Assembly: GCA_963831545.1 (NCBI GenBank)
Contig: CAWHQX010000011.1
Location: 143,206 to 207,205 of the forward strand
Origin: an uncultured Acidobacteriota bacterium
GTDB taxonomy: Bacteria > Acidobacteriota > Terriglobia > Acidiferrales > UBA7541
DNA length: 64,000 nucleotides
Reading direction: 5' to 3'
The notes under the pieces are model-generated. The model saw only the letters and a program-made list of their open reading frames with translations, was not told the origin of the DNA and did no database searches. Numbering within the stretch: position 1 is the first letter of the stretch; the number at the start of each line of letters is the position of its first letter. A program made the translations under genes and the position numbers. Shown here piece after piece: positions 7,466 through 43,104 of the stretch.

Positions 7466-7485
7466 AACTGGGGAAATCCCTAGGG
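7466..7485. promoter_or_regulatory. Island palindrome box 1 (AACTGGGG-AAAT-CCCTAGGG)
   Basis: Member of the repeated dyad. TAAAAG on the minus strand at 7444-7439 faces the AI-2E gene. Confidence 0.75.
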
Positions 7486-7569
7486 AGCCGCTCCGAGATG
7501 TTTGGTTGCCAGCCTCCGATGTCAGTAAAACGCGTTCACCGAAAACTTGGGACGGGAAGCTGTTTGCCG

Positions 7570-7589
7570 CGCTAGGGAAATCCCTAGTT
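7570..7589. promoter_or_regulatory. Island palindrome box 2 (CGCTAGGG-AAAT-CCCTAGTT)
   Basis: TAGACT at 7611-7616 faces the SYLF/YSC84 gene. Confidence 0.8.
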
Positions 7590-7693
7590 TCCCCAAGATG
7601 TTGTGCGAAGTAGACTCTCGGTGTCGGTCCGCCCAAAGCAAAGTTAGAAAGTGCACAGCAACGGTGTTGGTGCGCTTTAGGAGGAAGATTCCA

Positions 7694-8257
7694 ATGAAAT
7701 TGAAGATAATCGGCTGGGTGCTCGCGGTGGCTTTACTGTCGGCAATCGGAACCAGCGCTAAGGATGACAACGACGAAAAAAAGGAAAAATCCCGCAAGAT
7801 GGCTGCCCAGACTCTGCAGGATTTGTATAAACTCGATCCCCCAGCTCAGGCGGCTATCCAGAAGTCGGCCGGGTACGCAATTTTTAGCAACACGGGCGTC
7901 AATCTGTTGCTCAGCACGGCCCGCGGCTCGGGAATCGCCACGAACTCCAAAACCAAACAGGAAACTTTCATGAAGATGGTTTCGGCCGGGGCGGGTCTGG
8001 GCGTCGGCGTGAAGGACTATCGCGTAGTCTTCGTGTTCGAGAATGATAAGGCGTTCACTCAATTTCTCGATTCCGGTTGGTCCGGTTCGGCGCAAACGGA
8101 TGCTGCCGCTAAGGCCGGAGACAAAGGTGGAGCCTATTCGGGGGCGGTCGAGGTTGCCCCGGGTGTCTGGGTCTATCAGATCACGAAGAATGGCCTCGCG
8201 CTTCAATTGACCTTGCAGGGCACGAAATACTACAAGGACGACGACCTCAATAAGTAG
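7694..8257 (+). CDS. Secreted YSC84/SYLF-domain lipid-binding protein
   Basis: Signal peptide MKLKIIGWVLAVALLSAIG; motifs AGYAIF, GAGLGVGVKDYRVVFVF, GLALQLTLQGTKY; RBS GAGGA before ATG 7694. Confidence 0.8.
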   Translation: MKLKIIGWVLAVALLSAIGTSAKDDNDEKKEKSRKMAAQTLQDLYKLDPPAQAAIQKSAGYAIFSNTGVNLLLSTARGSGIATNSKTKQETFMKMVSAGAGLGVGVKDYRVVFVFENDKAFTQFLDSGWSGSAQTDAAAKAGDKGGAYSGAVEVAPGVWVYQITKNGLALQLTLQGTKYYKDDDLNK

Positions 8258-8342
8258 TCGAGCATCAAGATGCGAGACGGGGTCCACAAGCTCAGTCCGT
8301 TAGCTAATCTGTGTCTGCGGACTCAATCGAGGACGGTACGAG

Positions 8343-8558: not shown

Positions 8559-8613
8559 AGCGCAATGGACAATCAGGGGAAACTTGGTCGAATTCGACAA
8601 AGGAGAGCAGAAT

Positions 8614-9420
8614 ATGAAGTCAAGTAACAGTTGGATGAGAAGCGGCCTCGTGCTCGCTATGGCGACAGTCTGTATTGCCTTCGCTTGGAGCGCCGGGGCA
8701 CAAGTACAGACCACAAAGACTACGACTGTCGGCCAGAGCAGCCAGGTAGTCAAAGTCGATCGCGGCGAGGTTCTGGCGGTGGAAGGCAACGATTTGATGG
8801 TGAGAATGGCAGATGGCTCGATCCGTCACTTTGAGAACATCCCCGAGAGCGCCAAGGCTACAGTTGACGGAAAACAGATGGGAATTCACGACTTGAAACC
8901 GGGCATGAAGCTGCAGCGCACCATAACCACAACAACCACTCCTCAGATCGTTACCACTGTCGAGACAGTGAAGGGAAAGGTCTGGCATGTCACTGCGCCA
9001 CTCTCGGTGATCTTGACGCTGGAAAACGGAACGAATCAATCGTTCAAGATTCCGAAAGATCAGAAATTCAAGGTGAATGGAGAAATGGTTGACGCCTTCG
9101 GCCTGAGGAAGGGGATGGTGGTAACAGCGACGAAAATCGTGGAGGTTCCGTTTTCGGTCACGTCACAGGAGAAGAGTGTAAGCGGCACGATGCCGGCACC
9201 CCCGCTAGCCCTGCCAGCTCCGCCAACCGACACTGTTTTACTGATTGCCGAGGGAGAGCCCACGGCTGCTCCACCGGAGGCCGCGGAAACGCCCGCTGTC
9301 CCTATACAAACGAACCCGACGACGACGGGAAGCTACCTTCCAGCCATTGGTCTGGGTGTGTTGCTGCTGATTATTGTTTTGGCCCTGGCAAAACTCGGAC
9401 GCCGGAAGTCCCGAACTTAG
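8614..9420 (+). CDS. Exported beta-rich protein with C-terminal sorting-signal-like anchor; paralog of 25974-26768
   Basis: Signal peptide; core near-identical to the LPKTG protein (GEV..V.GNDL.VRM.DG.IRHF...GKVWHVT.P.SVILTLEN.TNQSFKIP); Pro-rich linker, NPTTTG, hydrophobic helix, RRKSRT tail. Confidence 0.85.
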   Translation: MKSSNSWMRSGLVLAMATVCIAFAWSAGAQVQTTKTTTVGQSSQVVKVDRGEVLAVEGNDLMVRMADGSIRHFENIPESAKATVDGKQMGIHDLKPGMKLQRTITTTTTPQIVTTVETVKGKVWHVTAPLSVILTLENGTNQSFKIPKDQKFKVNGEMVDAFGLRKGMVVTATKIVEVPFSVTSQEKSVSGTMPAPPLALPAPPTDTVLLIAEGEPTAAPPEAAETPAVPIQTNPTTTGSYLPAIGLGVLLLIIVLALAKLGRRKSRT

Positions 9421-9430
9421 AATGCTTCGA

Positions 9431-12140: not shown

Positions 12141-13430
12141 TCAGGCGGCGGCAGCTCGCCTTCTGGGTGCGCATTCACGCTCGTTGCGAAATCGGAATAA
12201 ATGTCGAAACGGGACAAAGTTGGCGACGAACATATACTCTGTGAGTCGCAAGCTCCCGTCCAAACGTCTAATCTGACATTCACCTTGCTTCTCTGCTCGG
12301 CTTATGAAAGGCAAACCATTTCCCTCGAGGGTCCGACTTTGACCCAAAAGAAAGGCATCAATGGTGAAGTGCCTGATGTTTGTCTCCGAAACTCCGAACA
12401 AATGCAAGGCTCTCTGATTTGCGGCAACAAATCGGCGGTCTGCGTTCGTCAAAACGATTGCGTCGACCGAGCTGGCCATTAACTCTTGCAAGTCACTCTC
12501 CCTCGCGCGACGTGCTTCCTGTAGCTTCCTGGTTTCCTCCCTGGCATTCTTCCAACGTCCTGTGAGCGTGTTGAGTGTCCGCCGCAGATGTACCGTCATA
12601 TGCTGCAAAGTGACGAAGAGTTGCGACCCGAATTTGCTGATTTTGTGACTCGTGACAGCGATCGCATCAAGGGAGCCTGCGAATACCTTCCGCAGGTCAC
12701 TTGCGCGATAGGATTCCTGCAGTCTCCGAGTTTTCTCCGGGAGAGTCTTCCCCCATTCAGCGAGCCCGTTCAGTGCCCGCCGAACACGCGCGGACACTTG
12801 CTCCAAAGCGGCAACGAGTTGCGGCCTGAATTTGGTAATTTTGTGAGTTGTCACAGCAATTGCATCGAGTGAGCCTGCGAATATCTTCCGCAAGTCGCTT
12901 GTGCGATATGATTCCTGGAGTCTTCGAGTTTTCTCGGGGACAGTCTTCCCCCATTCACCGAGCCTGTTCAGTGCCCGCCGAACATGCGCGGGCACTTGCT
13001 CCAAAGCGGCAACGAGTTGCGGCCTGAATTTGGTAATTTTTTGAGTTGTCACAGCAATTGCATCAAGTGAGCCTGTGAATATCTTCCGCAAGTCGCTTGT
13101 GCGATATGATTCCTGTAGTCTTCGAGTTTTCTCGGGGACAGTCTTCCCCCATTCACCGAGCCTGTTCAGTGCCCGCCGAACATGCGCGGGCACGTGCTCC
13201 AAAGCGGCAACGAGTTGCGGCCTGAATTTGGTAATTTTTTGAGTTGTCACAGCAATTGCATCAAGTGAGCCTGTGAATATCTTCCGCAAGTCGCTTGTGC
13301 GATATGATTCCTGGAGTCTTCGAGTTTTCTCGGGGACAGTCTTCCCCCATTCAGCGAGCCCTTTCAGTGCCCGCCGGACATTTACCGTCACTTGTTCGAA
13401 GAGTTGCGAACTGAATTTGGTGATTTTCAT
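12141..13430 (-). CDS. PAS-domain protein with an N-terminal array of 66-aa tandem repeats and no output domain
   Basis: C-terminus SDLQELMASSVDAIVLTNADRRFVAANQRALHLFG...GECQIRRLDGS is PAS-like; it is preceded by 4 repeats plus a diverged fifth. Confidence 0.8.
   Translation of the reverse strand: MKITKFSSQLFEQVTVNVRRALKGLAEWGKTVPEKTRRLQESYRTSDLRKIFTGSLDAIAVTTQKITKFRPQLVAALEHVPAHVRRALNRLGEWGKTVPEKTRRLQESYRTSDLRKIFTGSLDAIAVTTQKITKFRPQLVAALEQVPAHVRRALNRLGEWGKTVPEKTRRLQESYRTSDLRKIFAGSLDAIAVTTHKITKFRPQLVAALEQVSARVRRALNGLAEWGKTLPEKTRRLQESYRASDLRKVFAGSLDAIAVTSHKISKFGSQLFVTLQHMTVHLRRTLNTLTGRWKNAREETRKLQEARRARESDLQELMASSVDAIVLTNADRRFVAANQRALHLFGVSETNIRHFTIDAFLLGQSRTLEGNGLPFISRAEKQGECQIRRLDGSLRLTEYMFVANFVPFRHLFRFRNERECAPRRRAAAA
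12460..13427. repeat. 198-bp in-frame tandem repeat, about 5 units, no spacers
   Basis: The segment G(T/C)GCGATA(T/G)GATTCC recurs at 12703, 12901, 13099 and 13297, an exact 198-bp period. Confidence 0.95.
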
Positions 13431-13531: not shown

Positions 13532-14021
13532 TTAGCTGCCAGCCAGCCACTTGTTCAGGAGAACCTTAACCTCAACGCGTCGGTTTCCTGTGCGTCCGGC
13601 AGCAGACTCGTTGGAGGCTACGGGAGCCACTTCTCCCATAGCGCCAAGCGCCACGATGTGCCGAACCGGAACGTTGCAGTTCTGGAGCAAATATGCAATT
13701 ACGTTTTGCGCGCGCTCCATGCTCAGTTTCTGGTTCATTGCCGCGTCGCCGCTGGAATCGGCATAGCCCTTCACTCGAATGATATAGCCCTAAACGTCGA
13801 CGGCATCGTGGGCCAACTTTTTCAGGCTTCCTGATCCGTTGGGGAAATCTTGGGGCTGCCGCTAGCAAAGTGGACAACCAATTTGTACGATCGTATCGCC
13901 GGTGCGGCGGTGATCAGCCCCTTGACGTTTGTCTCGTCATCACATGCGCCTAAGCGACCATTAATGCCACAAAACAGGCGGTCCACAGGCCTACAAGGAT
14001 TCTCATTCGCTTGCTTTGCAT
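13532..14021 (-). pseudogene. Degraded OmpA-family protein (internal deletion, stops, frameshifts)
   Basis: RBS plus MQSKRMRILVGLW signal peptide interrupted by TAG; LKKLAHDAVDV*GYIIRVKGYADSSG...LSMERAQNV...GRTGNRRVEVKV is an OmpA C-terminal domain. Confidence 0.75.
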
Positions 14022-14193
14022 AAAGCCGTTCCCTCCCTTTAATCTCGGATCAGGACAGAAACTAGACCTGCATGGTCTACCAGGTATTTCCGCGCGTTGG
14101 GCAAGAACAACAATTCAGAAGAGAACGTGGACCAGCAGGCCACGCGCAACCCATCGAACAGCATCATTTATAAATACCGGCGGGAAGTAGCTC

Positions 14194-14213
14194 TACTAGG
14201 GGAATCCCTAGTT
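14194..14213. promoter_or_regulatory. Island palindrome box 3 (TACTAGGG-GAAT-CCCTAGTT)
   Basis: TATAAA on the minus strand at 14172-14167 faces the OmpA pseudogene and PAS-repeat gene. Confidence 0.8.
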
Positions 14214-14395: not shown

Positions 14396-14415
14396 GACTA
14401 GGGATTTCCCTAGGT
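14396..14415. promoter_or_regulatory. Island palindrome box 4 (GACTAGGG-ATTT-CCCTAGGT)
   Basis: TATCAT at 14438-14443, upstream of response regulator 1. Confidence 0.8.
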
Positions 14416-14485: not shown

Positions 14486-15175
14486 ATGGGGGATGTGTCC
14501 GCGAAGTATTTGCGTCCGCACGTACTGGTTGCGGATGACCATGCAATGTTTGCTGAAGCGTTGCGCGTTTATTTGGGAAAGACTTATACGGTTGTCGGGG
14601 TGGTGCTCGACGGTCGTGCGATGGTAGAGGCAGCTGTTCGGCTCAAGCCTGACTTGATTATTGTGGATGTCGGGATGCCGCTGCTGAACGGCTTGGATGC
14701 GGCCCGAAGAGTTCGAGTGCAAGTTCCAAGCGTCAGATTCATCTTCTTGACCATGCAGGATGATCCAAATCTTGCCGCGGCTGCTCTTGAACTAGGGACA
14801 ATTGCTTTTGTCCTCAAACATTCAGCTGGACCAGAACTGCTGAAGGCCATTGAACAGGTGCTAAGCGGCCGGCCCTACTTGACTCCCAAAGTGCGGTCCG
14901 TGGATTGGGTCCAAACCAAAGCTAGGGCCAGTCATTTCTCAAAGGAAATGACTCCGCGACAAACAGATGTCGTTCAAATGCTGGCCGAGGGACGGCCCAT
15001 GAAGGAGATCGCTGGGCTTCTGGAGTTGAGCGAAAAGACTGTGGAATTCCACAAACACCACATCATGGACGTTTTCAACCTCAAAAGTAATGCTGATGTG
15101 GTTTTGTTTGCTTTGAAGCGCGGCCTCATCTCCATGAATATTGAGCCCGAGCATCGCGCGCGCACCAGAGGATAA
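14486..15175 (+). CDS. NarL/FixJ-family response regulator (REC + LuxR HTH), copy 1
   Basis: VLVADDH, IIVDVGMP, FVLK; HTH TPRQTDVVQMLAEGRPMKEIAGLLELSEKTVEFHKHHIM. Confidence 0.95.
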   Translation: MGDVSAKYLRPHVLVADDHAMFAEALRVYLGKTYTVVGVVLDGRAMVEAAVRLKPDLIIVDVGMPLLNGLDAARRVRVQVPSVRFIFLTMQDDPNLAAAALELGTIAFVLKHSAGPELLKAIEQVLSGRPYLTPKVRSVDWVQTKARASHFSKEMTPRQTDVVQMLAEGRPMKEIAGLLELSEKTVEFHKHHIMDVFNLKSNADVVLFALKRGLISMNIEPEHRARTRG

Positions 15176-15523: not shown

Positions 15524-17395
15524 GTGACGGCTCAAGTCGAGCACAGCTTGGCGGGTGAACCTAGCCGCCCCGGTTGGCAGCATTCTGGCTATGGCCAGAG
15601 CGGGAGATCAGGAGCGGTAAGGTTCGCCCTGCTTCTGCTCCTCGTCGCTTTTCTGTTTCCGCAATCGATCGTGGCGCAACGAACGAAGTCTGTCCGGCGA
15701 GTCCTCATTTTCAATGATTTTGGTTCCATTTCGTCGCCCGGGATCGCGATTCTAGATCAGGCCATCGCGGCTGGCCTAGCGAGTTCTCCATACCAGATCG
15801 AACTCTACAACGAGAGTCTTGAGGCAACCTTGTTTCCTGATGAGCCTTCCCAGCACAGCTTCCGTGAATGGTTCATTCGCAAATACGCAGACCGCAAACC
15901 GGATGTAATCATTACCGTCGGACCTGCGTCTCTGAAGTTCATGGTCGAGGCGCATCAGACGTCATTTCCAAATATTCCAATCGTCTTTTGCGGCAGTACG
16001 AAGGAAATGCTGGACCAGCTGAAGCCAGACTCTTACTTTACCGGTGTTTGGGGAGTGGCACAGCCAGAAAAGACATTGATCGCGGCGTTGCACTTGCAAC
16101 CCGACACCAAGCACGTGGTTGTCGTGGGTGGTACTGGGGCGTTTGACCGGCGCCTCGAGGCCATCACCAAGGAAAGTTTGCGCAAGTACGAGTCGCAGTT
16201 CGAGTTCACATACCTCACGGACCTTACGATGCCTGCGCTCCTTGAACGACTAAGGCGGTTGCCGAGCGAGACGATTGTCTATCACACGTCCCTTATGGAG
16301 GACGCCGCGGGGACACACTTTATTGACGCAACCCAGGCCGCTCCTATGGTAGCAAGTGCCGCGAATGCACCTGTCTTTGCAATGGATGACGTCGATGTCG
16401 GTAATGGAACGGTGGGGGGCGACGTGGTGAGTTGGGCAGCGGGCGGTAAAATAGCTGCTGGGATGGTGTTGAGGATTCTCGACGGCGCGAAGCCGCAGGA
16501 AATTCCCATCGTCGGGAACGACAACGTCTATCTGTTCGATTGGCGAGCTCTGCGTCGGTGGGGACTCAAGGAAAGTGCCCTTCCACCCGGAAGCGTCGTG
16601 ATTTTCCGCGAATACTCCGTATGGGAACGCACCAAATGGATTTGGATCAGTGGGCTGCTGATGATCCTCAGTCTAGCCCTCCTTGCCGTCTATCTTCAGT
16701 TCAGTCGAAGACAACTCAAGCAGGCGAGAGAGTTTCAGTTGCAGCTAAGCGGCCTTTTGATCAACGCACAGGAAATGGAACGGAGACGATTGGCGTCGGA
16801 GCTCCATGATGATTTCAGCCAGCGCGTGGCCCTGCTCGCATTGGGATTGGAAAATGCCTCGGAGGCGCTACCTGATTCTTCAGAAGCTACCAAGCGACAG
16901 CTGCACGAGCTTTTTGATTCAGCTAGCGAGCTTGGTGCCGATCTACACACCGTATCCCATCGTTTGCATCCCTCCGTCCTTGAGAGCCTGGGACTTGCCC
17001 CAGGGGTAGACGCTTTATGTAAGGAATTCAGTGCCCGGCAGGACATTCGGGTTGATTTTTCTTCCGAGAATATTCCTCATGTCGTGCCTCCCAACGTAGC
17101 TCTGTGTTTATTCCGTATTGTCCAGGAGGGCCTTCAGAATTTAAGGAAGCATAGTGGAGCTTCGCAGGCCCAGGTAAGCTTGCGTAAGGACGGGGACAGA
17201 TTGCGTCTCTCCGTATGTGATAAAGGTAAAGGTTTCGATACGAAGGAGGTGAGAAATAAAGTGGGCCTGGGAATACCAAGCATGGGAGAACGTGTACGAC
17301 TGCTTGGTGGGCAATTCGAGATTCAATCGGAACCCGGGAAAGGGACCAAAATCGAGGTGTGTATGCCGCTTCCAACAAACGGGATTATCAGCTGA
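15524..17395 (+). CDS. Sensor histidine kinase (periplasmic substrate-binding-protein-like domain, 1 TM, HisKA_3, HATPase_c), copy 1
   Basis: ERRRLASELHDDFSQ H-box, QEGLQNLRKH N-box, DKGKGFD and GLGIPSM G-boxes. Confidence 0.93.
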   Translation: MTAQVEHSLAGEPSRPGWQHSGYGQSGRSGAVRFALLLLLVAFLFPQSIVAQRTKSVRRVLIFNDFGSISSPGIAILDQAIAAGLASSPYQIELYNESLEATLFPDEPSQHSFREWFIRKYADRKPDVIITVGPASLKFMVEAHQTSFPNIPIVFCGSTKEMLDQLKPDSYFTGVWGVAQPEKTLIAALHLQPDTKHVVVVGGTGAFDRRLEAITKESLRKYESQFEFTYLTDLTMPALLERLRRLPSETIVYHTSLMEDAAGTHFIDATQAAPMVASAANAPVFAMDDVDVGNGTVGGDVVSWAAGGKIAAGMVLRILDGAKPQEIPIVGNDNVYLFDWRALRRWGLKESALPPGSVVIFREYSVWERTKWIWISGLLMILSLALLAVYLQFSRRQLKQAREFQLQLSGLLINAQEMERRRLASELHDDFSQRVALLALGLENASEALPDSSEATKRQLHELFDSASELGADLHTVSHRLHPSVLESLGLAPGVDALCKEFSARQDIRVDFSSENIPHVVPPNVALCLFRIVQEGLQNLRKHSGASQAQVSLRKDGDRLRLSVCDKGKGFDTKEVRNKVGLGIPSMGERVRLLGGQFEIQSEPGKGTKIEVCMPLPTNGIIS

Positions 17396-17454: not shown

Positions 17455-17474
17455 GGTTAGGGTTTTCCCTAGTT
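17455..17474. promoter_or_regulatory. Island palindrome box 5 (GGTTAGGG-TTTT-CCCTAGTT)
   Basis: TAGAAT at 17496-17501, upstream of the lipoprotein-DASS operon. Confidence 0.8.
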
Positions 17475-17614: not shown

Positions 17615-18187
17615 GTGGTGCTTTCTCGGGAAGGCTCGTTGGTCTCGCTCGGGCGACGATTGTTAGTGCTCGCTCTGCTGCTGCCGACCGGATGCAGTCA
17701 GCCGACTATTCCATCCTCTGAGATTTCTACGCCAAGCGAGTGGCACGCATTCGAAGGCACTTGGACCGCCTCAGGTACTCGGCAGACGATTAAGCTGGAG
17801 ACAGACCACCGCGCGTCCACATTCGATTTGACCGGGTCGCTGCTACTAACAGGAGATCGTGGGTTGGGCGTAGGGTTCCGGGCGAGGGCCATGGGTTTCT
17901 CCGACACTCTCGCCGGAATGCAGGGCCGCTGTGTGTGGACTGATGAGCGCGGCGATAAGGTATACAGCGAATTGAACGGTGAGTGGGTGGGAACCGGAAG
18001 ACGCGTCGTCGGCACTTTTCTGGGAGGAACCGGGCGATTCGCCGGCATCACCGGCGAGTATTCCTTTGAGTGGGAGTACGTCGTTGTGTCCGAGGACGGC
18101 GGGGTGAGCGGCAGGTCCGTCAACCTTAAGGGCCGCTCTCGGTTTGGTTCAACGCCTCCCGCGATTACCGGAGAACAATCCAAATGA
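17615..18187 (+). CDS. Hypothetical beta-rich lipoprotein
   Basis: Lipobox-like LLLPTGC; its stop overlaps the DASS start (ATGA coupling). Confidence 0.7.
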   Translation: MVLSREGSLVSLGRRLLVLALLLPTGCSQPTIPSSEISTPSEWHAFEGTWTASGTRQTIKLETDHRASTFDLTGSLLLTGDRGLGVGFRARAMGFSDTLAGMQGRCVWTDERGDKVYSELNGEWVGTGRRVVGTFLGGTGRFAGITGEYSFEWEYVVVSEDGGVSGRSVNLKGRSRFGSTPPAITGEQSK

Positions 18188-21388: not shown

Positions 21389-21408
21389 ACCTAGGGATTT
21401 GCCTAGTG
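21389..21408. promoter_or_regulatory. Island palindrome box 6 (ACCTAGGG-ATTT-GCCTAGTG)
   Basis: Lies between divergent sulP-like and kinase 2 genes; TAAATT on the minus strand at 21366-21361. Confidence 0.75.
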
Positions 21409-21656: not shown

Positions 21657-23537
21657 GTGCCGGTTAGCCTGCGCTTGCGCCGGTATCGGGAGATGGTCCT
21701 GGAAAATGTTTCGCTCTCCGGGCAAGGCAATCAGCTTCCGAGAGCATTGCTTGCGTCTGGCTGGGCTTCGCTGCTGACTCTCGTCGTCTTATTCGGGAGC
21801 GGCCAAACCTCGGCTCAAGCGCCTCTGAAAAGAAATGTGCTGATTCTCAGCGACGTGGGTTTGTCGCATTCCCTCACTGCGGAATTTACCCGGGACATTG
21901 TCGCAGAGGTGCGGGATACGCCAGCGCGACATGTCGAGTTTTACTCTGAGAGTCTCGATCTGCAGGCCTTTCCAGGCGGACCTTCGCGAGATGATTCCGA
22001 AGACTGGCTTGCCAAGAAATATGGCGAACATAAATTGGACGCAGTCGTAGCGATTGGTCCGGGCACAATTGATTTTCTCTCCAATGATACCGAGGACCTG
22101 TTCCAAAATGCGCCCATTGTGATTTGCGGGAGTTCCGCGGATCAAGCCAGTAATCCAAAACTCGATGCCAGATTCACAGGAACGTGGGTCCAGCTTAAAC
22201 CAGAAAGAACACTTGAACTGGCTCTGCAGCTTTTCCCAGATACACGTCACGTGTTTGTGGTGGGAGGTAGTTCCGACTTTGACAAAGCAGTGATGTCGTT
22301 GACAAAAAAGGCGCTGGGTTCGGTCAAGCCGACGCCGGAAATTGTCTATCTGACCGGCATGGAAATGAATGGTTTACTGGAACGGCTGCGGAATCTGCCG
22401 GACCACTCCATCGAGTTCTATACTTCATTCTTTCAGGATTCGGCCGGGAATAGATTTCTCAATGCAACTAAAGCCCTTCCGATGATCGCGGCAGCCTCCA
22501 ACGGCCCGGATTTCGGCATGTCTGATGGGTATCTGGGAAATGGGATTGTTGGCGGATACGTTTTGCCCTTTGAAAAACAAGCGAGGATGACAGCCCAAAT
22601 TGTCGGGGAACTACTGGACGGGAAACAAGTCCAGGCAATTCCGATCAAGACTCTTTCCAGTGAGTACGAGTTCGACTGGCGTGAACTCAAGCATTGGCAT
22701 ATCACGGAAGCCAGCCTTCCACTGGGAAGCGTGATCATGTTTCGAGAGCGTGGTCTCTGGGAGCGCACCAAGTGGGCTTGGATCACATCGCTTCTGATCA
22801 TCGCGGCTCTCTCCTCCATTACCTTTTACCTGCAAAGCAGCCGAAAGCAGCTAACGCTGGCCAAGGAAAAGCAGATGCAGCTCAGCGGTCTGCTGATCAA
22901 CGCAGAGGAGAAGGAACGAAGCCGGGTGGCATCCGAACTTCACGATGACTTTAGCCAGAGGCTGGCGTTACTGGCCCTGGGTTTGGAGAGTGTTGACGAA
23001 GCCACGCCCGCTTCTTTAGAGCACGTTCATAAGCAATTGCAGGAGCTTGCCAGGTCCACAAGCGAGCTTGGTTCTGATCTGCACACCCTATCGCATCGGT
23101 TGCATTCGTCCACGCTCGAGAGCCTGGGTCTTGTTCCGGCTGTCGACGCTTTATGCAGAGAATTCACTTGCAAGCAAGGCATCAGGGTCGACTTTTTATG
23201 CGATGAAATTCCGCGATCAATCAATCCCGACGCAGCCCTTTGTATCTTCCGCATCGTTCAAGAATCACTGCGGAACGTGAAGAAGTACAGTGGTGTGGAG
23301 GAGGCGGAGGTGGACCTGCGAATGACGGGCGACAGATTAGAGATTCGCGTGAGGGACAAAGGACGCGGATTCAGTTTGTCGGAACTCGGCCAGAATGGGG
23401 GTCTCGGTATCCGGAGCATGGAACAACGCGCGCGGCTGTTGGGTGGAAATTTTGAGATTCACTCTGAGCTCGGAAAGGGTACGAGAGTCGAGGCCTGGGT
23501 GCTGCTCAAACCCGTAGTACGGCATACGACGGCCTAG
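21657..23537 (+). CDS. Sensor histidine kinase (SBP-like sensor, HisKA_3, HATPase_c), copy 2; start may be downstream
   Basis: ERSRVASELHDDFSQ; collinear paralog of 15524-17395. Confidence 0.93.
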   Translation: MPVSLRLRRYREMVLENVSLSGQGNQLPRALLASGWASLLTLVVLFGSGQTSAQAPLKRNVLILSDVGLSHSLTAEFTRDIVAEVRDTPARHVEFYSESLDLQAFPGGPSRDDSEDWLAKKYGEHKLDAVVAIGPGTIDFLSNDTEDLFQNAPIVICGSSADQASNPKLDARFTGTWVQLKPERTLELALQLFPDTRHVFVVGGSSDFDKAVMSLTKKALGSVKPTPEIVYLTGMEMNGLLERLRNLPDHSIEFYTSFFQDSAGNRFLNATKALPMIAAASNGPDFGMSDGYLGNGIVGGYVLPFEKQARMTAQIVGELLDGKQVQAIPIKTLSSEYEFDWRELKHWHITEASLPLGSVIMFRERGLWERTKWAWITSLLIIAALSSITFYLQSSRKQLTLAKEKQMQLSGLLINAEEKERSRVASELHDDFSQRLALLALGLESVDEATPASLEHVHKQLQELARSTSELGSDLHTLSHRLHSSTLESLGLVPAVDALCREFTCKQGIRVDFLCDEIPRSINPDAALCIFRIVQESLRNVKKYSGVEEAEVDLRMTGDRLEIRVRDKGRGFSLSELGQNGGLGIRSMEQRARLLGGNFEIHSELGKGTRVEAWVLLKPVVRHTTA

Positions 23538-23715: not shown

Positions 23716-24414
23716 ATGGAAAACGTTTTAATAGACAGATCTCGACCAAAGTTCCTGATCGCCGATGACCATGCGATGTTCGCGGAGGCTTTGAGAGTTT
23801 TTCTGGAGCGAACATACCCAGTTGTCGGGTTGGTGTCCGACGGCCGCGCCTTGATTGAAGCAGCCTCACGACTTAAGCCTGAAATCATTATCGTCGATGT
23901 GGCCATGCCCATCCTGAATGGCCTAGATGCGGCGCGCAGAATTAAGGAGCAGTCTGCCAAGATCAAGTTCATCTTCCTGACGATGCAAGAGGATCCAAAT
24001 CTGGCTGCAGCGGCGCTGGAACTGGGCCCGATCGGGTTCGTGCTGAAGCACACGCCTGGGTCGGAACTATTGAAGGCGATTGATCATGTACTGCATGGAA
24101 AGCCCTATGTGACTGCCAAGCTGAGGGCGGAGGATTGGGTCACAACGAAGGCGCGGGCGCGACAGTTCGCTACGGAATTGACGGCACGGCAGCGCGATAT
24201 CGTGCAGTTGTTTGCCGAAGGGCGGCCCATGAAGGAAATCGCTGGATTGCTGAACCTAAGCGAAAAGACGGTGGAATTCCACAAGCATCACATTATGGAA
24301 GCGTTCAACGTTAAGAATAATGCCGATCTGATATTGTTCGCTTTGAAACATGGACTTATCTCGATCGATCCCGAGCCCTCTGTGCCGGCACGCGCGGGCC
24401 ACAACGGGCGATAA
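23716..24414 (+). CDS. NarL/FixJ-family response regulator, copy 2
   Basis: IADDH, IIVDVAMP; HTH AEGRPMKEIAGLLNLSEKTVEFHKHHIM. Confidence 0.95.
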   Translation: MENVLIDRSRPKFLIADDHAMFAEALRVFLERTYPVVGLVSDGRALIEAASRLKPEIIIVDVAMPILNGLDAARRIKEQSAKIKFIFLTMQEDPNLAAAALELGPIGFVLKHTPGSELLKAIDHVLHGKPYVTAKLRAEDWVTTKARARQFATELTARQRDIVQLFAEGRPMKEIAGLLNLSEKTVEFHKHHIMEAFNVKNNADLILFALKHGLISIDPEPSVPARAGHNGR

Positions 24415-24440: not shown

Positions 24441-24460
24441 GACTAGGGATTTCCCCAGTG
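24441..24460. promoter_or_regulatory. Island palindrome box 7 (GACTAGGG-ATTT-CCCCAGTG)
   Basis: TAACAT at 24482-24487, upstream of the receiver-only protein. Confidence 0.75.
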
Positions 24461-24569
24461 GCGAAGTCCGTTCCCACCACCTAACATCCGATTCTGGTTT
24501 GGTACCATCGCATCGTGGGACGCTGACGTGGCGGACCCACCGTGCGCGATTGTTGGATGGAGGCGAACA

Positions 24570-24965
24570 TTGATTCGCCCACGCGTGCTCCTGGCCGATG
24601 ACCATCTCGAATTCCTGGAAGCGGAAATCGCTTTGCTGCGACCTCATTTTGAACTGGTGGGCACGGTGAGCGATGGAGTTTCGCTTATATCTGAGGCCGC
24701 GCGGCTCAGTCCGGACGTTGTGGTGGTTGACGTCACCATGCCGTTTATGAACGGCATCGACGCGGTCCGCAAACTCGTCGAGTCCGGCTGCACTACCAAG
24801 TTTGTATTTCTGACGATTAATACTGGCGCGGAGTTCGTTAAAGCATGCCAGCAAGCAGGAGCTCGGGGCTATGTCTGGAAAAGCCGAATGAACGCCCATC
24901 TGATTCCAGCGATTTACGCGGCCCTCAAAGGCCTTCCGTATATTTCTCCGTTAACTTCCTCGTGA
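24570..24965 (+). CDS. Single-domain (receiver-only) response regulator
   Basis: VLLADDH, VVVDVTMP, GYVWK; ends without an HTH. GGAGG precedes TTG 24570. Confidence 0.85.
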   Translation: MIRPRVLLADDHLEFLEAEIALLRPHFELVGTVSDGVSLISEAARLSPDVVVVDVTMPFMNGIDAVRKLVESGCTTKFVFLTINTGAEFVKACQQAGARGYVWKSRMNAHLIPAIYAALKGLPYISPLTSS

Positions 24966-25064: not shown

Positions 25065-25084
25065 GGTTAGGGATTTCCCTAGTT
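25065..25084. promoter_or_regulatory. Island palindrome box 8 (GGTTAGGG-ATTT-CCCTAGTT)
   Basis: TAAAAG at 25107-25112, upstream of the sortase. Confidence 0.8.
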
Positions 25085-26768: not shown

Positions 26769-26781
26769 AGTAACCCCGAAA

Positions 26782-28288: not shown

Positions 28289-28295
28289 ACAAGTC

Positions 28296-29840: not shown

Positions 29841-29860
29841 TACTAGGGTTTTCCCTAGTT
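29841..29860. promoter_or_regulatory. Island palindrome box 9 (TACTAGGG-TTTT-CCCTAGTT)
   Basis: Upstream of the RND operon. Rightward hexamer is weak (CAGAGT at 29882); leftward TAGGAT at 29818-29813. Confidence 0.8.
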
Positions 29861-37283: not shown

Positions 37284-38573
37284 TCAACTCATTCGCCACG
37301 GTTGGCCGGTGGAGGCGAGGACGCTGTTCCAAAGGGTTCCCTTGGGGTCAATCTTTTTTCGTTGTGATGTGGCGAGCGATATAGGTACATGGGTGAACTG
37401 GTGGTTCCAGAAACCGACCACCATGTTTGTTCTGCCACTCATTCCTGCATGCACGGCGTTGTGTGCAAGAAGGAGGCAGAAGGCCGAGTCATGTGGGTTT
37501 GCCGGCACGCTCCTGATGATGTAGCTCGGATCGATGTACTTGATGCTTACTTTCGTACCTGTAGTCTTAAAGTGCTCTCCAATCGTGTCGCGCAGGAAAA
37601 TTCCGATGTCTGCGTACTGGACGTTTCCCGAAGGGTCGCAGTCCGCCCTTTTTTGCAAGAGATCTTGGCCCGCACCTTCCGCGACAACAATCACTGCATG
37701 GCCTCTGCGATCGAGGCGTAACTTGAGTTCAGCCAGGAATTTATCGAGAGTAAACGCAACTTCGGGAACAAGACAAAAGTTCGCCTGGCTGTCGACCAGG
37801 ACGGAATAGGCTGCGATGAATCCGGAGTCGCGGCCCATCAATTTTACCAGTCCGATGCCGTTGGTCGCAGCCTCTGCCTCGGTGTTGGCCGCATAAATGG
37901 CTCGGCGCGCTTCGGAAACCGCTGTCTCGAAACCGAAGGTCTTTTGAACGAAGGAGACGTCGTTGTCGATGGTCTTCGGGACGCCAATGACGCTGAGGGC
38001 CATCCCTTGCCGACTCGCTTCTTCGGCGATTTTCTGCGCTCCCCGAAGGGTGCCGTCGCCGCCTATGGCGAAGAGGATACCGATCTTCAGGTCTGCGAGG
38101 GTTTGGACCATCTCCGCCGGGTCCTGAGGCCCACGCGAAGAGCCCAAAACAGTCCCGCCGGTCTCGTGAATTCGCTTGACCGACTCTGGCAATAGTTTGA
38201 GAGGCTCGTGGCCGTACCGGCGCACGAGGCCCTCATAGCCAAAGCGGAACCCATACACCTTATTCACGTCGTAGTGGTGGTACAGGCTCAGGACGATGGA
38301 GCGAATCACATCGTTCAACCCTGGACAGAGCCCACCGCAGGTCACTATTCCGCAAACGAGTTTTGAGGGATCGAAAAAGAGATTCTCCCTCGGTCCCGCT
38401 GCCTCCATCGCGGGAGGATCCGCACGTTCTGCGATCCATAACTTTATGTCCTCCAGTCGCGCGTGAAACAGCACACGTTCGTCGTCGCAGGTAAATCGTA
38501 CGCCGGATAACGGTGAAGGAAAGCGGCACGGGCCCAATCGCGCTATCGCAAAATTAAGATCGCCCTCTAGCAT
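37284..38573 (-). CDS. pfkA: 6-phosphofructokinase, GGDG + PKTIDND type (probably ATP-dependent)
   Basis: TCGGLCPGLN, GTVLGSSRG, IGGDGT, VPKTIDND, KLMGRDSG, YIDPSYIIRS. Confidence 0.9.
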   Translation of the reverse strand: MLEGDLNFAIARLGPCRFPSPLSGVRFTCDDERVLFHARLEDIKLWIAERADPPAMEAAGPRENLFFDPSKLVCGIVTCGGLCPGLNDVIRSIVLSLYHHYDVNKVYGFRFGYEGLVRRYGHEPLKLLPESVKRIHETGGTVLGSSRGPQDPAEMVQTLADLKIGILFAIGGDGTLRGAQKIAEEASRQGMALSVIGVPKTIDNDVSFVQKTFGFETAVSEARRAIYAANTEAEAATNGIGLVKLMGRDSGFIAAYSVLVDSQANFCLVPEVAFTLDKFLAELKLRLDRRGHAVIVVAEGAGQDLLQKRADCDPSGNVQYADIGIFLRDTIGEHFKTTGTKVSIKYIDPSYIIRSVPANPHDSAFCLLLAHNAVHAGMSGRTNMVVGFWNHQFTHVPISLATSQRKKIDPKGTLWNSVLASTGQPWRMS

Positions 38574-38826: not shown

Positions 38827-38846
38827 TACTGGGAAAACCCCTAGTT
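38827..38846. promoter_or_regulatory. Island palindrome box 10 (TACTGGGA-AAAC-CCCTAGTT)
   Basis: TAGGAT on the minus strand at 38804-38799 faces pfkA. Confidence 0.7.
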
Positions 38847-38878: not shown

Positions 38879-38898
38879 GATCAGGGATTTCCCTAGTT
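38879..38898. promoter_or_regulatory. Island palindrome box 11 (GATCAGGG-ATTT-CCCTAGTT)
   Basis: 52 bp from box 10, upstream of the BASS gene; no good -10 at the fixed spacing. Confidence 0.7.
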
Positions 38899-39083: not shown

Positions 39084-39903
39084 TTGTTCTCACCGGATAA
39101 ACTCGTCAACCCGCTCGTCTTGATTCTTCTCATTGAGATGATGGTGGCGACGGGACTTGGCGTGTCATTCGGTGATCTCGCAAGCGTACTTAAGAATGCA
39201 GGTCTTCTTGCCCGTGCAGCGCTGGCAAATTACGTCCTGGTCCCCGCAGCAGCCATTCTCCTTTTATATCTGTTCCATACCGCTCCCATGGTGACTGCCG
39301 GATTTCTACTGGTTGCCGCGTGTCCCGCAGCCCCGTTCGCTCCACCGTTGACAGCGATGGCCAAAGGCAACGTTAACGTTGCTGTCGGACTAATGGTGGT
39401 TTTGGCGGCGTCCTCTGCGATTCTTGCGCCAATTCTATTGAGCTTTCTCTTACCTCTTATGGCTCGCGGAGCAAACTTGAAAATCGATACGTTCAAGATT
39501 GTAACAACGCTTCTGATGACCCAAATCCTGCCGCTGGGAATCGGGATGCTGGTTCACTCCAGACTTCAGAAGCATGCGGCAAAGTTGCAGACAGCGAGCG
39601 AATCTCCTTAGCGCGGTCCTGAGTCTCGTGGTCTTTGCATTGATCATTAGTCTGCAATATAAGACTCTCGCGGAAATCCGATGGGTAGGCTTTGTGGGGC
39701 TCACTCTCCTGATACTGCTCAGTCTGGCTGCCGGCTGGATAGTTGGGGGCCAAATGATTGGAATTCGCCGGGCGGTTGCCCTGACTACGGCAGCGCGAAA
39801 CGTTGGCGTTGCGCTGGTGATCGCAACCGCGAGTTTTCCTGACAGTGCCGCTGTGACAGCGGTCATCGTTGTCGCGATTTTCCAGACGGTGCTGCTCACG
39901 TGA
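39084..39903 (+). pseudogene. Bile acid:Na+ symporter (BASS)-family transporter split by a frameshift near 39595
   Basis: Frame 1 has LANYVLVP, ACPAAPFAP, AKGNV; frame 2 continues ANLLSAVLSL...TAARNVGVALVIA. Confidence 0.8.
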
Positions 39904-40007
39904 TTTCTCTGTCGATGGGTCGATTCTCTTCAGTGCCTCAACCATTCTGAGGGCAAGAGAAAGCAATGTTTGCGACGATGCTTGCTTCGTAGAAGGAAAG
40001 TCAGCGA

Positions 40008-41273
40008 TTACTTCGGTCGCGAGGTTCCGAGCCCCTGCCGATCTTCTGCCGATGCATCCTGTTTGTCTTCCGGGTTGCCAAACGACCGCTCGATGATGGA
40101 CTGCAGCCGCTGCTGCCGATGCCGTAGAGCATGATGACGTTCTTCGGGCAGTACAGAGATCATCTCACTGATGAGGGCCCTCATTCGACGCATAACTTGC
40201 ACACTATTGGCACCATAGAAACAAATCTCATCGAATGCCAAGCGCAGGAAGTCCTCCCAGCTCGGAAAGGCAATGAGGACTCGGATGTTGTCGTCAGAGT
40301 CGCGAAAGGCGCCAATTTCTAAACGGCGTCGGCCCAGACGGAGCAAAAGATCTTCAATCTGGTCCAGTGCCTGTACCGCTGTGGTCGGATCATTAATCGC
40401 CGGAGACAGGGCTTTGATGGCGATGTCGACCAGCAATCGGATGGCATATTTAGGATCTTGCTCGAAAGTACGCTCGCCGCCTAGATCAATCGCACTCCTC
40501 AGCTGTGACTCAGCGATTCGGCCCCCTTCCCCAACAACCCGCAGAATCGGGGTCAAATCAAAGACAGAATCACCAACGGCGGCAGCGAATTCAATGACAC
40601 ATCCGGCCCTGCTGGCAATCTGCACCAGTGCCGGCACATCCAAAGCTTGGACGATCTCCGGATGGCCGTGATGCACAAGCGTCTGGACACTAGGAAAATG
40701 AGAGATTTCAGCAAAGCCTGAAGACGCAGGCGTATCTAATGGGGGATACAGATTCTCAATAACTTTGCGACCGTGATCACCCGTGAAGACCAACATCCTG
40801 GTAACCTGCAGCATACTCACACGTTGGATGAGACTAATAAACATGATGACGCTTACGATAAGCAGCGCGGTTACCACTACTATGCCGACTAACGGAACTC
40901 GGCCGGTGCCCCCACGGTCGACCCAAGCCAACGCAACCAGCGCGTAAAGAAATGTTGCAGTAAAAACACCGATCGCATGGGAGATCACGGGGTCACGGGC
41001 GATCCACAAAACAAGCCGCGGGGAGTAGGCTGTAGCACTGAATTGCACCATGACAAAGGTCAGAGAGAATACAATGCCCGTGAGGGCGAGCATACCGGAC
41101 GCAATGGAAGAGTAAATGCCGATTGCGGCGTTCGCGCTGACAGTGGAAGCGAAGCCTGGTAGGAGCACATTGGCCAGGCGGGCTACCGTCACGCCAGACG
41201 TAAGTGCCGCCGCCGCATAAACCAACGGAACAAGCCATGCCTTGGCCTGGGTCTTACGCAGCTTATGAAACAT
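40008..41273 (-). CDS. DUF2254-family membrane protein
   Basis: VQFSATAYSPRL, ERTFEQDPKYAIRLLVDIAIKALSPAINDPTTAVQALD. Confidence 0.9.
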   Translation of the reverse strand: MFHKLRKTQAKAWLVPLVYAAAALTSGVTVARLANVLLPGFASTVSANAAIGIYSSIASGMLALTGIVFSLTFVMVQFSATAYSPRLVLWIARDPVISHAIGVFTATFLYALVALAWVDRGGTGRVPLVGIVVVTALLIVSVIMFISLIQRVSMLQVTRMLVFTGDHGRKVIENLYPPLDTPASSGFAEISHFPSVQTLVHHGHPEIVQALDVPALVQIASRAGCVIEFAAAVGDSVFDLTPILRVVGEGGRIAESQLRSAIDLGGERTFEQDPKYAIRLLVDIAIKALSPAINDPTTAVQALDQIEDLLLRLGRRRLEIGAFRDSDDNIRVLIAFPSWEDFLRLAFDEICFYGANSVQVMRRMRALISEMISVLPEERHHALRHRQQRLQSIIERSFGNPEDKQDASAEDRQGLGTSRPK

Positions 41274-41294
41274 CGTCTCGCGAGCTCGCTCTTC

Positions 41295-42869
41295 TCATTC
41301 GGCCGATTGCGCCCTGACAAAGTTGTATTTTGCGCTGAACATAATCCGCGGCGCATTGCCCGTAGAGCCGTCTTTGTTTACTCGCCAGCCATAAAGGAAT
41401 TCCGTGCCCAAGGTCAATGAGCCGTAAGGATTCCAGATCAGGTTACCCGCCGCATAATTGCTTTGGTGAAATACGGAGCCGGGCTGGGCTTCGGTGTTTT
41501 GGACTTGGACAAAGCCGTATACCACGCTTGAGCGCAAGCCCTTAAGCCAGAAATGTTGCAAACCCGCGTAGGTTGCGAATACGGGCAGCGCTTTGAGTTC
41601 GGGATTCTGCAAGCTGGTGACCGCCGCGTCGATTCCCAAGCCAGACGTATCATTGATGTAGCGTTCGATGCCATTCCCGTAAGCTCCCTGATAAACGATG
41701 GTATTCTGCCTCCATAACTTTTCCGATCCCGCCAGATTGAAGCCCCACCCGAACACGGAGTCATGCCGGCCATCTGGCAGATACGCCGCTACATCTCGAA
41801 ACAATGCGGAAACCTGCACATGGCCGCCGTCCATTTCACGCCGCAGCTTCAAGGCTCCGTCAGGCGCAGGGCTGTTCGGTTGAGCACTGAAATCGGGGGT
41901 GGTGAATGCTACGTCCGAGTTGGGCTTCTCAACCGATAGGCTGAAGGTCGTCTTTTCTGCGACCAAAAGACTGTAACGAAATTGTGGGTTGCGAATGGAA
42001 ACCTGCGCGTTTGGGCCCTGGAAGTCGAGCTGGTCAGTCCCCGCGTCAGGATCCATGAAGTTAGAGAAGGTCTGGCCGATCAGGAAATTCTTTGCTTGTC
42101 CGTAAGCATGGCGCAATCTTGGAGTGGTTGCGTTGGAACCGAAAAGATCCGCTTCAACGAAGAATCTGATCGATTCGCCTGACTTCAGCGGAACCAGGAA
42201 GTCAAGATTGATGCGCGTCGGTCGTACCGATATGGTCGTGTTCGTAAATGCGGCCGGAGCCGGAATTGGGATCGTGGCCGGAATGAAGCTATCGACATTT
42301 CCTGCCGGCTTCAAATCGTAGATAAAGTCAGTTTTGGCATAACCGCCTATCCGCAATAATGTGCTCGTACCTGGCAGCCGGAAATATCCCGGAAAACGCG
42401 GGTCCAGCGGTTCGTTATTGATGCGCGGGGCGGCCAGCGGATCCTGCGCAAAGGTGCGATAGGTCGAAGTTGTGTTGCTAATTTCCTCTTTTTTCGGAGT
42501 CAGTTCCGATTCCACTTGCGTCTTTTCTTCACTCTGCCATGTGGCAACAGCCGCCGCTGGAGCGGGTGCGGCTGCTGCAGTTGGAGCTTTGGCAGGAGCA
42601 CCCGAAATGCGCTTCAGTTCGCTCTGCACCTCTGCCATCTGGTTCTGCAGATTGTCCAGTTTCTTTTGAAGAGCCTCTATTTGGGACGGCGTCGCCTCTT
42701 GTCCTTGCGCGCGAGCTGATTGCGAGCCGGCGACGAAAAAGACTGCACAGAACAAACAAATTGAAGTTGTTTTACGGAGACGGATCTTTGTTCTCGCACC
42801 GCATCCAAGCGCAATTGCGGAGTTAAATGAAAAGCGAACGTTGGGGTAATACGCGTTCAGACAATTCAT
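41295..42869 (-). CDS. DcaP-family trimeric outer-membrane porin (start uncertain)
   Basis: N-terminal coiled coil (IEALQKKLDNLQNQMAEV), IGGYAKTD, RLRHAYG, LIGQTFSNFMD, C-terminal SAKYNF. Confidence 0.8.
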   Translation of the reverse strand: MNCLNAYYPNVRFSFNSAIALGCGARTKIRLRKTTSICLFCAVFFVAGSQSARAQGQEATPSQIEALQKKLDNLQNQMAEVQSELKRISGAPAKAPTAAAAPAPAAAVATWQSEEKTQVESELTPKKEEISNTTSTYRTFAQDPLAAPRINNEPLDPRFPGYFRLPGTSTLLRIGGYAKTDFIYDLKPAGNVDSFIPATIPIPAPAAFTNTTISVRPTRINLDFLVPLKSGESIRFFVEADLFGSNATTPRLRHAYGQAKNFLIGQTFSNFMDPDAGTDQLDFQGPNAQVSIRNPQFRYSLLVAEKTTFSLSVEKPNSDVAFTTPDFSAQPNSPAPDGALKLRREMDGGHVQVSALFRDVAAYLPDGRHDSVFGWGFNLAGSEKLWRQNTIVYQGAYGNGIERYINDTSGLGIDAAVTSLQNPELKALPVFATYAGLQHFWLKGLRSSVVYGFVQVQNTEAQPGSVFHQSNYAAGNLIWNPYGSLTLGTEFLYGWRVNKDGSTGNAPRIMFSAKYNFVRAQSAE

Positions 42870-43084
42870 ACAAGGACCTCTCTGAATCGCAGAGATACGT
42901 AAAAAACGAATTCCGTTGCGTTCCGACTGCGGAGATTCGGCAATTTGCTGCGGCTCCGAATGAAACAACGTTCTCTTGGCAGCATCTTTCGTAACCCGGC
43001 GAACCGGCAACCATGCGAAAGATCGATACTGCAAATTCTTTCGCCATTTGTATTTGCAGGGTAAGAGACAATTTCACGCGATGA

Positions 43085-43104
43085 AACTAGGGATTTCCCT
43101 AGTT
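43085..43104. promoter_or_regulatory. Island palindrome box 12, perfect arms (AACTAGGG-ATTT-CCCTAGTT)
   Basis: Lies between divergent porin and decarboxylase genes. TACCCT (minus, 43063-43058) and TAAATG (plus, 43126-43131) are both 31.5 bp from the centre. Confidence 0.85.

Follow-up and report, generated by a model that had tools for sequence, protein, structure and literature searches.

The window examined here is a 64,000-bp stretch of DNA from an uncultured Acidobacteriota bacterium (C11:143206-207205 of a 5.0-Mb assembly, 94% complete), which carries an accessory island in which a short inverted repeat, hereafter the box, recurs in front of genes of unrelated function. The island also encodes two paralogous two-component systems, each made of a response regulator and a histidine kinase (RR-A with HK-A, RR-B with HK-B), and a receiver-only protein devoid of a DNA-binding helix-turn-helix (HTH) domain. 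The coordinates of these features, the promoter elements beside each box and the genes faced are collected in Table 1, where gene identities come from Pfam and NCBIfam searches of the open reading frames (ORFs) of the window.

A search of the window for CTAGGGNNNNCCCTAG with up to 2 mismatches returned exactly 12 matches, and these are the 12 palindromes that a sequence-only reading of the same DNA had located, the 16-mer starts used here being its 20-mer starts + 2. Five of the boxes are perfect, 5 carry 1 mismatch and 2 carry 2, while dinucleotide-preserving shuffles of the window give a mean of 0.9 matches with a maximum of 4. The spacer measures 4 bp in 12/12 boxes and is A/T-rich, as had been claimed, with one G or C in two of them (GAAT and AAAC). 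When a symmetrised 20-bp position weight matrix (PWM) made from the 12 window sites was run on the whole genome, the top 12 hits all fell in the window, with 21–33 bits, and the next best hit elsewhere reached 18.5 bits; with at most 1 mismatch, the whole genome holds 11 matches, 10 of them inside the window. All box copies in the genome are confined to one 36-kb stretch, and the PWM scan agrees with the earlier reading in yielding no additional box at 1–7 kb or at 50–64 kb of the window. The claim that all boxes are intergenic also holds after correction of two start codons, that of RR-A (14486, not 14414) and that of the SYLF gene, whose real start lies well past 7547 judging by a 190-aa ortholog.

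The recognition helix SEKTVEFHKHHIM is identical in RR-A and RR-B, and in an alignment with their two orthologs from the related genome G023 the four proteins have the helix LSEKTVEFHKH(H/Q)I in common. In a six-frame translation of the whole genome the motif TVExHKxH has two matches only, RR-A and RR-B, and no DNA-binding protein besides these two was found among the island ORFs scanned with Pfam and NCBIfam. The acidic pocket DD, the acceptor D, and the T and K residues are invariant in an alignment of both regulators with NreC. The best relatives in the PDB are NarL, VraR and DesR; no NCBIfam equivalog scored above its cut-off, MctR/MctS being the best, with MctR at ~135 bits against a 300-bit cut-off. 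The regulator family comprises at least 2,683 clusters in metagenomes (E of 1e-60 or better), and the database names are all the generic 'NarL/FixJ family response regulator'. On the sensor side, both kinases carry a periplasmic domain of ~320 aa that resembles a substrate-binding protein (SBP-like). Neither kinase gave a hit to a PAS, heme or Fe-S module by Pfam and hydropathy analysis, and for the periplasmic domain of HK-B no sequence relative was found in the PDB. Two further, more distant paralogous pairs of SBP-sensor kinase and regulator lie at C7:392308-396026 and C15:136777-140388 of this genome (G000); their regulators share 49% and 43% identity with RR-B, but the helix is another one, TKRTVA[GA]HKYAVME, and presumably they read some other box.

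The relation of the box to promoters was read from the flanks of 313 unique sites (from the window, the second island in G023 and 79 related loci described below), taken in both orientations (626 flanks). The motif TTGNNN begins at the first base past the 16-mer in 217/626 flanks, and TANNNT is found at a distance of 23 nt from the box in 101 flanks and of 24 nt in 51, against ~3.5 at other offsets. The predicted -35 element, which the box abuts, belongs to a sigma-70-type promoter whose spacer is 17 or 18 bp, the positions being those of hexamer matches alone. With the -10 hexamer set at -12 to -7, the centre of the box lies at -43.5 with the 17-bp spacer and at -44.5 with the 18-bp spacer, and the 20-bp form of the box overlaps the -35 hexamer by 2 bp. 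A gene is faced by 146/160 orientations with the fixed -10 vs 249/472 without it (Fisher p = 2e-20). The TTG is one-sided at 184 sites and two-sided at 17, and the side that carries it faces a gene in 178/218 cases, compared with 217/414 for the other side; it is therefore an element of the promoter and does not prolong the palindrome symmetrically. The rest of the -35 hexamer, past the TTG, is poor. TTG and strict TAnnnT are weakly associated (41% vs 32%), and there are hints of compensation between the TTG and -10 elements. Moreover, long ORFs leave 36% of the DNA uncovered, and it is there that 97% of the sites lie. The flanks of the 313 sites revealed no conservation beyond the box, the TTG and the -10, which argues that the unit is not a mobile cassette. 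Within the window, every box (12/12) can be read in at least one direction in which such a promoter points at a gene. A -10 of the form nAAAAG was also observed in place of TAnnnT at the fixed offset of boxes 1, 6, 8 and 11, as TAAAAG twice and CAAAAG twice.

Conservation was assessed around orthologs of the regulator. A scan of named genomes with RR-B gave 280 relatives, of which the best 79 loci (67–92% identity) were kept with 10 kb on each side, genes being called simply as longest ORFs. At least one box lies within 10 kb of the regulator ortholog in 75/79 loci, with a median of 4–5, and the helix is nearly invariant in these 75. Around the 79 loci there are 341 sites of at least 16 bits, vs 1 in a reversed-sequence control. 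Two positions recur: one ~30 bp past the stop codon of the regulator, upstream of the receiver-only gene, which is the commonest recurring position over the 79 loci, and a second ~550–650 bp further, whose window counterpart is the box upstream of the sortase gene. All loci are labelled as metagenome-assembled genomes of Acidobacteriota except L009 (CAVUAV010000011.1, 'uncultured Acidimicrobiales bacterium', Actinomycetota), where an RR-B ortholog (81% identity) is accompanied by 6 boxes arranged as in Acidobacteriota; this contig is probably mis-binned or mislabelled, and not a case of cross-phylum transfer.

A survey that covered 41 close relatives together with 401 genomes from the class revealed box clusters in five species of the genus (G000, G023, G355, G359 and G426) and, outside it, in three genomes of other families (G404, G190 and G290). 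Within the genus, a close RR ortholog (E of 1e-60 or better) occurs in 4/4 of the other box-positive genomes and in 0/18 of the box-negative ones. In G404 and G190 the ortholog lies inside or beside the box cluster, and a box with a promoter of the type TTGTTG-17 bp-TATATT precedes an operon of receiver-only protein, (kinase) and regulator, while a divergent box faces a DcaP-like porin. Genomes of the G404 and G190 kind comprise 1–2 contigs, are 99% complete and probably come from isolates. In G355 and G426 the family is expanded to 5–7 close regulator paralogs, which lie on several contigs or far apart and some of which are interrupted by in-frame stops. The island of G023 holds 17 sites above 20 bits and has most of its cargo in common with the window, at 51–88% protein identity and in a rearranged gene order; no counterpart of the window flanks was found in G023. 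In both islands, boxes stand upstream of the orthologous AI-2E, SYLF, RR-A, SulP, sortase, BASS and decarboxylase genes. In G023 one box precedes SulP, HK and RR, all on the same strand, whereas SulP is inverted in the window, where box 6 lies between divergent genes. The wiring of unrelated cargo to one box, as the sequence-only reading had proposed, is supported, and the boxes are conserved upstream of orthologs in G023 and in the related loci. Its notion of an island-wide regulon is right in that the box is private to the island within this genome, but the box is not specific to this island: the system is conserved in many Terriglobia genomes and is widespread in soil Acidobacteriota.

Taken as a whole, the box is most probably the operator of RR-A and RR-B, whose dimers are predicted to activate transcription from a class II-like site. 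The sequence-only reading had already pointed to NarL/LuxR-family dimers; such a dimer is the best candidate reader, and both the co-occurrence of box and ortholog and the NreC-like helix speak for it. In the proposed mechanism, the periplasmic SBP-like domains of HK-A and HK-B would sense a ligand outside the cytoplasm, and the kinases would phosphorylate RR-A and RR-B. A dimer of the regulator would then bind the inverted repeat just upstream of the -35 of a sigma-70-type promoter and activate transcription from a class II-like position, as NarL does at yeaR, and ~12 transcription units would respond together, including the regulators' own operons and the receiver-only protein. Positive autoregulation is implied by the boxes that precede RR-A/HK-A and the SulP/HK-B-RR-B unit. 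Among the box-driven targets the receiver-only protein is the commonest (48 loci), which suggests a built-in feedback; it is probably such a feedback element or a phosphate sink. Since the sensor domains have diverged (50% identity) and the helices are identical, one regulon probably receives two signals. We infer from these data, in each case, that the regulators bind the box physically and that they activate instead of repressing, as well as the part played by the receiver-only protein and the kind of signal.

Some findings weigh against this assignment. A strict TANNNT occurs at the fixed offset in only about half of the sites, and in several promoters of the window the -10 hexamer is weak (CAGAGT and CAAAAG, for instance). 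In 4/79 ortholog loci there is no box within 10 kb and the helix is intact there; in addition, the helix does not vary in the family, leaving no covariation of helix and box to compare. Furthermore, G290 has box-like sites and no RR-B ortholog at E of 1e-60 or better. Its 7 sites are spread over contigs C25, C36, C41, C45 and C68 with differing spacers (ATTG, ATGT, GTAT and others), and they may reflect a diverged regulator or be chance sites. The close contact with the -35 hexamer, including the overlap in the 20-bp form, would also be compatible with occlusion of the promoter. The sites of G290 could equally be brought forward for a reader encoded elsewhere, for instance a CRP/FNR-type dimer, the two-component systems being mere members of the regulon; a 5-N4-5 inverted repeat near -42 resembles the FNR-type class II sites near -41.5, and a CRP/FNR-like gene lies downstream of a box in one locus (L029). 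However, the box tracks the RR ortholog (4/4 vs 0/18 within the genus, 75/79 loci), the island ORFs scanned hold no further DNA-binding protein, and the helix nearly matches that of NreC, a binder of the same core, all of which makes another factor very improbable.

The box is also a perfect 6-bp stem with a 4-nt loop that could fold in RNA or in single-stranded DNA, and its copies are clustered in an accessory region adjoining a tRNA gene, as might be expected of a repeat without regulatory role, be it a repetitive extragenic palindrome (REP) or a miniature inverted-repeat transposable element (MITE), a structural hairpin such as a terminator, or a recombination site. Yet the copies are not dispersed in the genome, their flanks are conserved only at the box, the TTG and the -10, no T-run follows the box, the distance to the -10 is constant, the link to gene starts depends on orientation, and the box is kept upstream of orthologs in rearranged islands. 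A REP/MITE-like dispersed repeat was ruled out, given the single 36-kb stretch, the non-conserved flanks and the intergenic, promoter-phased sites. The genome PWM scan, the flank analysis and the orientation of promoters towards genes effectively refute the repeat, terminator and recombination-site reading altogether, to which we give next to no probability; the earlier preference for a regulatory signal over a REP-like repeat is borne out by the genome-wide frequency check, with its top 12 hits all in the window. What deserves more attention is a change of sign with the same protein and the same sites, in which the dimer at -35 would block RNA polymerase until the signal arrives: the possible occlusion mentioned above fits it, and some promoters are indeed repressed by NarL-family regulators. 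Nevertheless we regard repression as unlikely, since such sites usually spread across -35 to +1, whereas a strictly fixed phase upstream of the -35 fits the NarL activation complexes at -43.5/-44.5, and -35 hexamers that are poor beyond TTG are typical of activator-dependent promoters. NreC, with its near-matching helix and the same box core, is moreover described as an activator (PMC5694512, PMC8139620).

Table 1. Boxes of the island with their predicted promoters, and the genes of the two-component systems (window positions)
Feature	Position	Strand	-35, spacer, -10	Gene faced or remarks
Box 1 (CTGGGGAAATCCCTAG)	7468..7483	-	TTGTTC, 17 bp, TAAAAG	AI-2E family transporter gene 6216-7301(-)
Box 2, perfect	7572..7587	+	TTTCCC, 17 bp, TAGACT	SYLF/Ysc84-domain gene, ORF 7547-8257
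Box 3, perfect	14196..14211	-	TAGAGC, 17 bp, TATAAA	OmpA-like pseudogene 13538-14048, then PAS protein 12141-13430(-)
Box 4, perfect	14398..14413	+	GTGGCG, 18 bp, TATCAT	Upstream of RR-A/HK-A; putative autoregulatory site
RR-A	14486..15175	+		REC + GerE/LuxR HTH (PF00072, PF00196), NarL/FixJ-type; Pfam, alignments
HK-A	15524..17395	+		Transmembrane helix (TM) 1, periplasmic ABC_sub_bind (SBP-like), TM2, HisKA_3 (PF07730), HATPase_c (PF02518); Pfam, hydropathy
Box 5	17457..17472	+	TTGAGC, 17 bp, TAGAAT	Putative lipoprotein 17615-18187 and DASS transporter 18184-19599
Box 6, - reading	21391..21406	-	GTGAAG, 18 bp, TAAATT	SulP 19626-21344; box between divergent genes
Box 6, + reading	21391..21406	+	TGGCAG, 17 bp, CAAAAG	Possibly HK-B/RR-B
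HK-B	21657..23537	+		Paralog of HK-A (50% identity), identical architecture (PF07730, PF02518); Pfam, hydropathy
RR-B	23716..24414	+		Paralog of RR-A (~70% identity), REC + GerE/LuxR HTH (PF00072, PF00196); Pfam
Box 7	24443..24458	+	TGGCGA, 17 bp, TAACAT	Receiver-only protein; box 29 bp past RR-B stop codon
Receiver-only protein	24528..24965	+		HTH-less; follows RR-B; Pfam
Box 8	25067..25082	+	TTGTCG, 18 bp, TAAAAG	Operon of sortase, LPKTG protein, DUF3300 and DUF2950, 25164-29339
Box 9, perfect	29843..29858	+	TTGTTG, 17 bp, CAGAGT (weak)	RND efflux operon and PPK2 (35877)
RND efflux operon behind box 9	MFP 30030, RND 31286, OMF 34438	+		
Box 10, 2 mismatches	38829..38844	-	TAGCCG, 18 bp, TAGGAT	Phosphofructokinase 37284-38573(-)
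Box 11, 2 mismatches	38881..38896	+	TTGCCG, 17 bp, CAAAAG	BASS/SBF transporter, split ORFs 39084-39903
Box 12 (AACTAGGGATTTCCCTAGTT), + reading	43087..43102	+	TTGTTG, TAAATG	Decarboxylase-AspD-AspT operon 43191-49513; perfect 20-bp palindrome, best score (33 bits)
Box 12, - reading	43087..43102	-	TTTCAT, 17 bp, TACCCT	DcaP-type porin 41295-43034(-)

The genes that the sequence-only reading had assigned downstream of the boxes were essentially right according to Pfam and NCBIfam, with the refinement that the 'OmpA' gene is a pseudogene and the BASS gene consists of two ORFs. In the OmpA-like gene behind box 3, the C-terminal part (13538-13831) has an in-frame stop and is 82% identical to the intact, box-driven OmpA-like protein of locus L047, and the N-terminal fragment (13944-14048) carries another stop. 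The BASS/SBF gene (+) is read as two overlapping ORFs of 175 and 109 aa where the G023 ortholog is a single one of 306 aa, which points either to a pseudogene arisen by frameshift or to an error of assembly. Further - strand genes follow the PAS protein in the unit of box 3, down to 9488. The gene of this stand-alone PAS protein contains an in-frame 198-bp tandem repeat at 12618-13381 (3.9 copies, 93% identity), where odd low-complexity Pfam hits were obtained. Box 9 is also present in the closest loci (L006, L007 and L009). The cargo also includes a DUF2254 gene and a 947-aa protein of the Orn/Lys/Arg-decarboxylase family. The aspartate 4-decarboxylase (AspD) was assigned by TIGR03801 with 799 bits vs a cut-off of 435 bits, and the aspartate:alanine antiporter (AspT) by TIGR03802 with 653 bits vs a cut-off of 547. 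A second aspT at 49570-49998 (+) is truncated after ~142 aa just where the accessory block ends, while its counterpart in G023 is full length (574 aa); a tRNA-Asp gene (50280-50356) and a tRNA-Val gene, both within 50280-50456 (-), lie ~280 bp from the truncated copy. Outside the island, the window flanks carry ordinary metabolic genes (GH52, MFS, PDH E1 and others), and no difference in base composition was found between island and flanks. A sortase gene is followed by that of a secreted protein ending in LPKTG, a transmembrane helix and a basic tail (25164-26768, +), and a paralog at 8584-9420 (+) has the same N-terminal domain with a degenerate sorting signal; the host appears to be diderm, as an OMF, a porin and OmpA-like proteins are also encoded.

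In the 79 loci, the genes downstream of boxes were counted with the criterion 'TTG or -10', because the strict TANNNT rule undercounts promoters (that of the sortase gene, for example, reads TAAAAG). The families found were the receiver-only protein (48 loci), a DcaP-like porin (21), DUF3300 (19), sortase (14), AI-2E (13), SulP (12), a small K+-channel-like protein with a TVGYGD motif (9), Ysc84/SYLF (8 and 7), OmpA-like protein (7) and beta-carbonic anhydrase (7), together with lipoproteins. This set points to a putative regulon of the envelope and of anion, bicarbonate and organic-acid transport, which a ligand from outside the cytoplasm would trigger. The acid or low-oxygen energy-stress response proposed by the sequence-only reading is hypothetical. 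The large decarboxylase and AspD/AspT would fit a role linked to acid or to the proton-motive force; however, within 10 kb on each side they occur in few loci, and AspD/AspT are not among the families most often downstream of the box. Direct sensing of low oxygen seems unlikely, since the sensor is a periplasmic SBP-like domain and PAS, heme and Fe-S modules are absent from the hits.

Beyond the operator itself, the chances seem to us about even that this system represents an undescribed Terriglobia-wide regulon, in which an expandable set of SBP-sensor kinases and paralogous regulators would act through one NreC-like helix on one box-plus-promoter unit, and which accessory genes of the envelope, anion transport and decarboxylation would join by acquiring that unit. 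The mechanism is textbook and the regulon apparently undescribed; a literature search found no acidobacterial description of the box or the regulon, nor any regulon described for this phylum, which is weak evidence since subscription journals were mostly outside its coverage. Acidobacteriota are among the most abundant phyla of soil and are poorly studied, and the present analysis supplies a regulon prediction for them. It comprises an operator of clear-cut sequence with more than 300 sites, along with a family of candidate regulators, the layout of the promoter and a set of genes that recurs. The prediction also places several domains of unknown function in a functional setting and offers a usable pair of inducible promoter and regulator for a phylum without genetic tools.

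As regards known systems, RR-A and RR-B show the hallmarks of the NarL/FixJ class, namely the phospho-acceptor Asp of the REC domain, the GerE/LuxR HTH, an adjacent HisKA_3 kinase, and an inverted repeat of 16–20 bp near their own genes and their targets. Within this class, DosR/DevR and ComA are regulators that use GC-containing inverted repeats near -35 in stress or quorum regulons of many operons. The ComA box has the layout 6-N4-6, like the box of the island, and DosR reads GGG...CCC with a wider spacing; in both cases the half-sites, sensors and targets differ from those of the island. Another parallel is the SsrA-SsrB system of Salmonella pathogenicity island 2 (SPI-2), encoded in a horizontally acquired island, which wires most operons of its island and other cargo through a palindrome. 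SsrB uses an 18-bp 7-4-7 palindrome with a 4-bp spacer, kept in the orthologous island of another genus (PMC2837388). However, its half-site is another one, single half-sites and flexible positions are tolerated where the island boxes are strongly symmetric and fixed, and the biological context differs.

The promoter geometry finds its parallel in NarL-dependent promoters of E. coli. A single NarL dimer on a 7-2-7 site activates at yeaR (-43.5) and at ogt (-44.5) by contacting the RNA polymerase alpha subunit at its C-terminal domain (alpha-CTD), as illustrated by a cryo-EM complex (PMC10853779), and the likeness extends to the regulator of REC and LuxR-HTH domains, the palindrome just upstream of the -35 and the HisKA_3-type kinase. 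The sites differ, as those of NarL are TACYYMT-type heptamers in the 7-2-7 arrangement, and so do the helices: NarL has STVKVHVKHML at the position of SEKTVEFHKHHIM, and the residues with which it contacts bases, K188, V189 and K192, are E, F and H in the island regulators. At the alpha-CTD interface, K174 of NarL is conserved in the island regulators and R178 is replaced by Gly, according to the alignment.

The box and helix, in turn, resemble those of NreBC from staphylococci and Bacillus licheniformis, where a core TAGGG-N4-CCCTA with an A/T-rich spacer is read by a NarL-family regulator with a near-identical helix. The NreC operators tested by electrophoretic mobility shift assay are TAGGG-N4-CCCTA-like with A/T-rich spacers, as in nar OP2 (TAGGAGAATCCCTA) and nir OP2 (AAGGGGATTCCCTA), and mutation of IR-9 of B. 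licheniformis (TAGGGGAGTTCCCTA) abolishes the binding of phosphorylated NreC (PMC9918477, Suppl. Fig. 11b). The likeness to NreC proved stronger than the sequence-only reading had supposed, with a near-identical helix and the same core, and the site that it gave, TAGGG-N4-TCCCA, is to be replaced by the published TAGGG-N4-CCCTA-like form (PMC9918477). In the proteins named NreC by NCBI, the helix SVKTVEAHKTHIM nearly matches SEKTVEFHKHHIM of RR-A and RR-B, whereas the overall identity is just 33–35%, which is ordinary among NarL-family regulators and not at the level of orthology. NreB has a cytoplasmic Fe-S PAS domain, whereas HK-A and HK-B have two transmembrane helices flanking a periplasmic SBP-like sensor; among the island ORFs scanned, neither an NreA-like GAF protein nor the nar, nir and narT targets of NreABC were found. 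The island system is therefore not an Nre system, since the type of kinase, NreA and the nar/nir targets are not matched and the identity is of family level only. Its box is furthermore extended to C-TAGGG...CCCTA-G, locked against the -35 and found in a different phylum. The two systems provide a direct test case of whether the helix-to-box code of NreC is transferable between phyla, and if the Terriglobia-wide reading is true, the identity of helix and box with NreC of Firmicutes would be a clear example from nature of a portable recognition code, common to the two phyla or reinvented.

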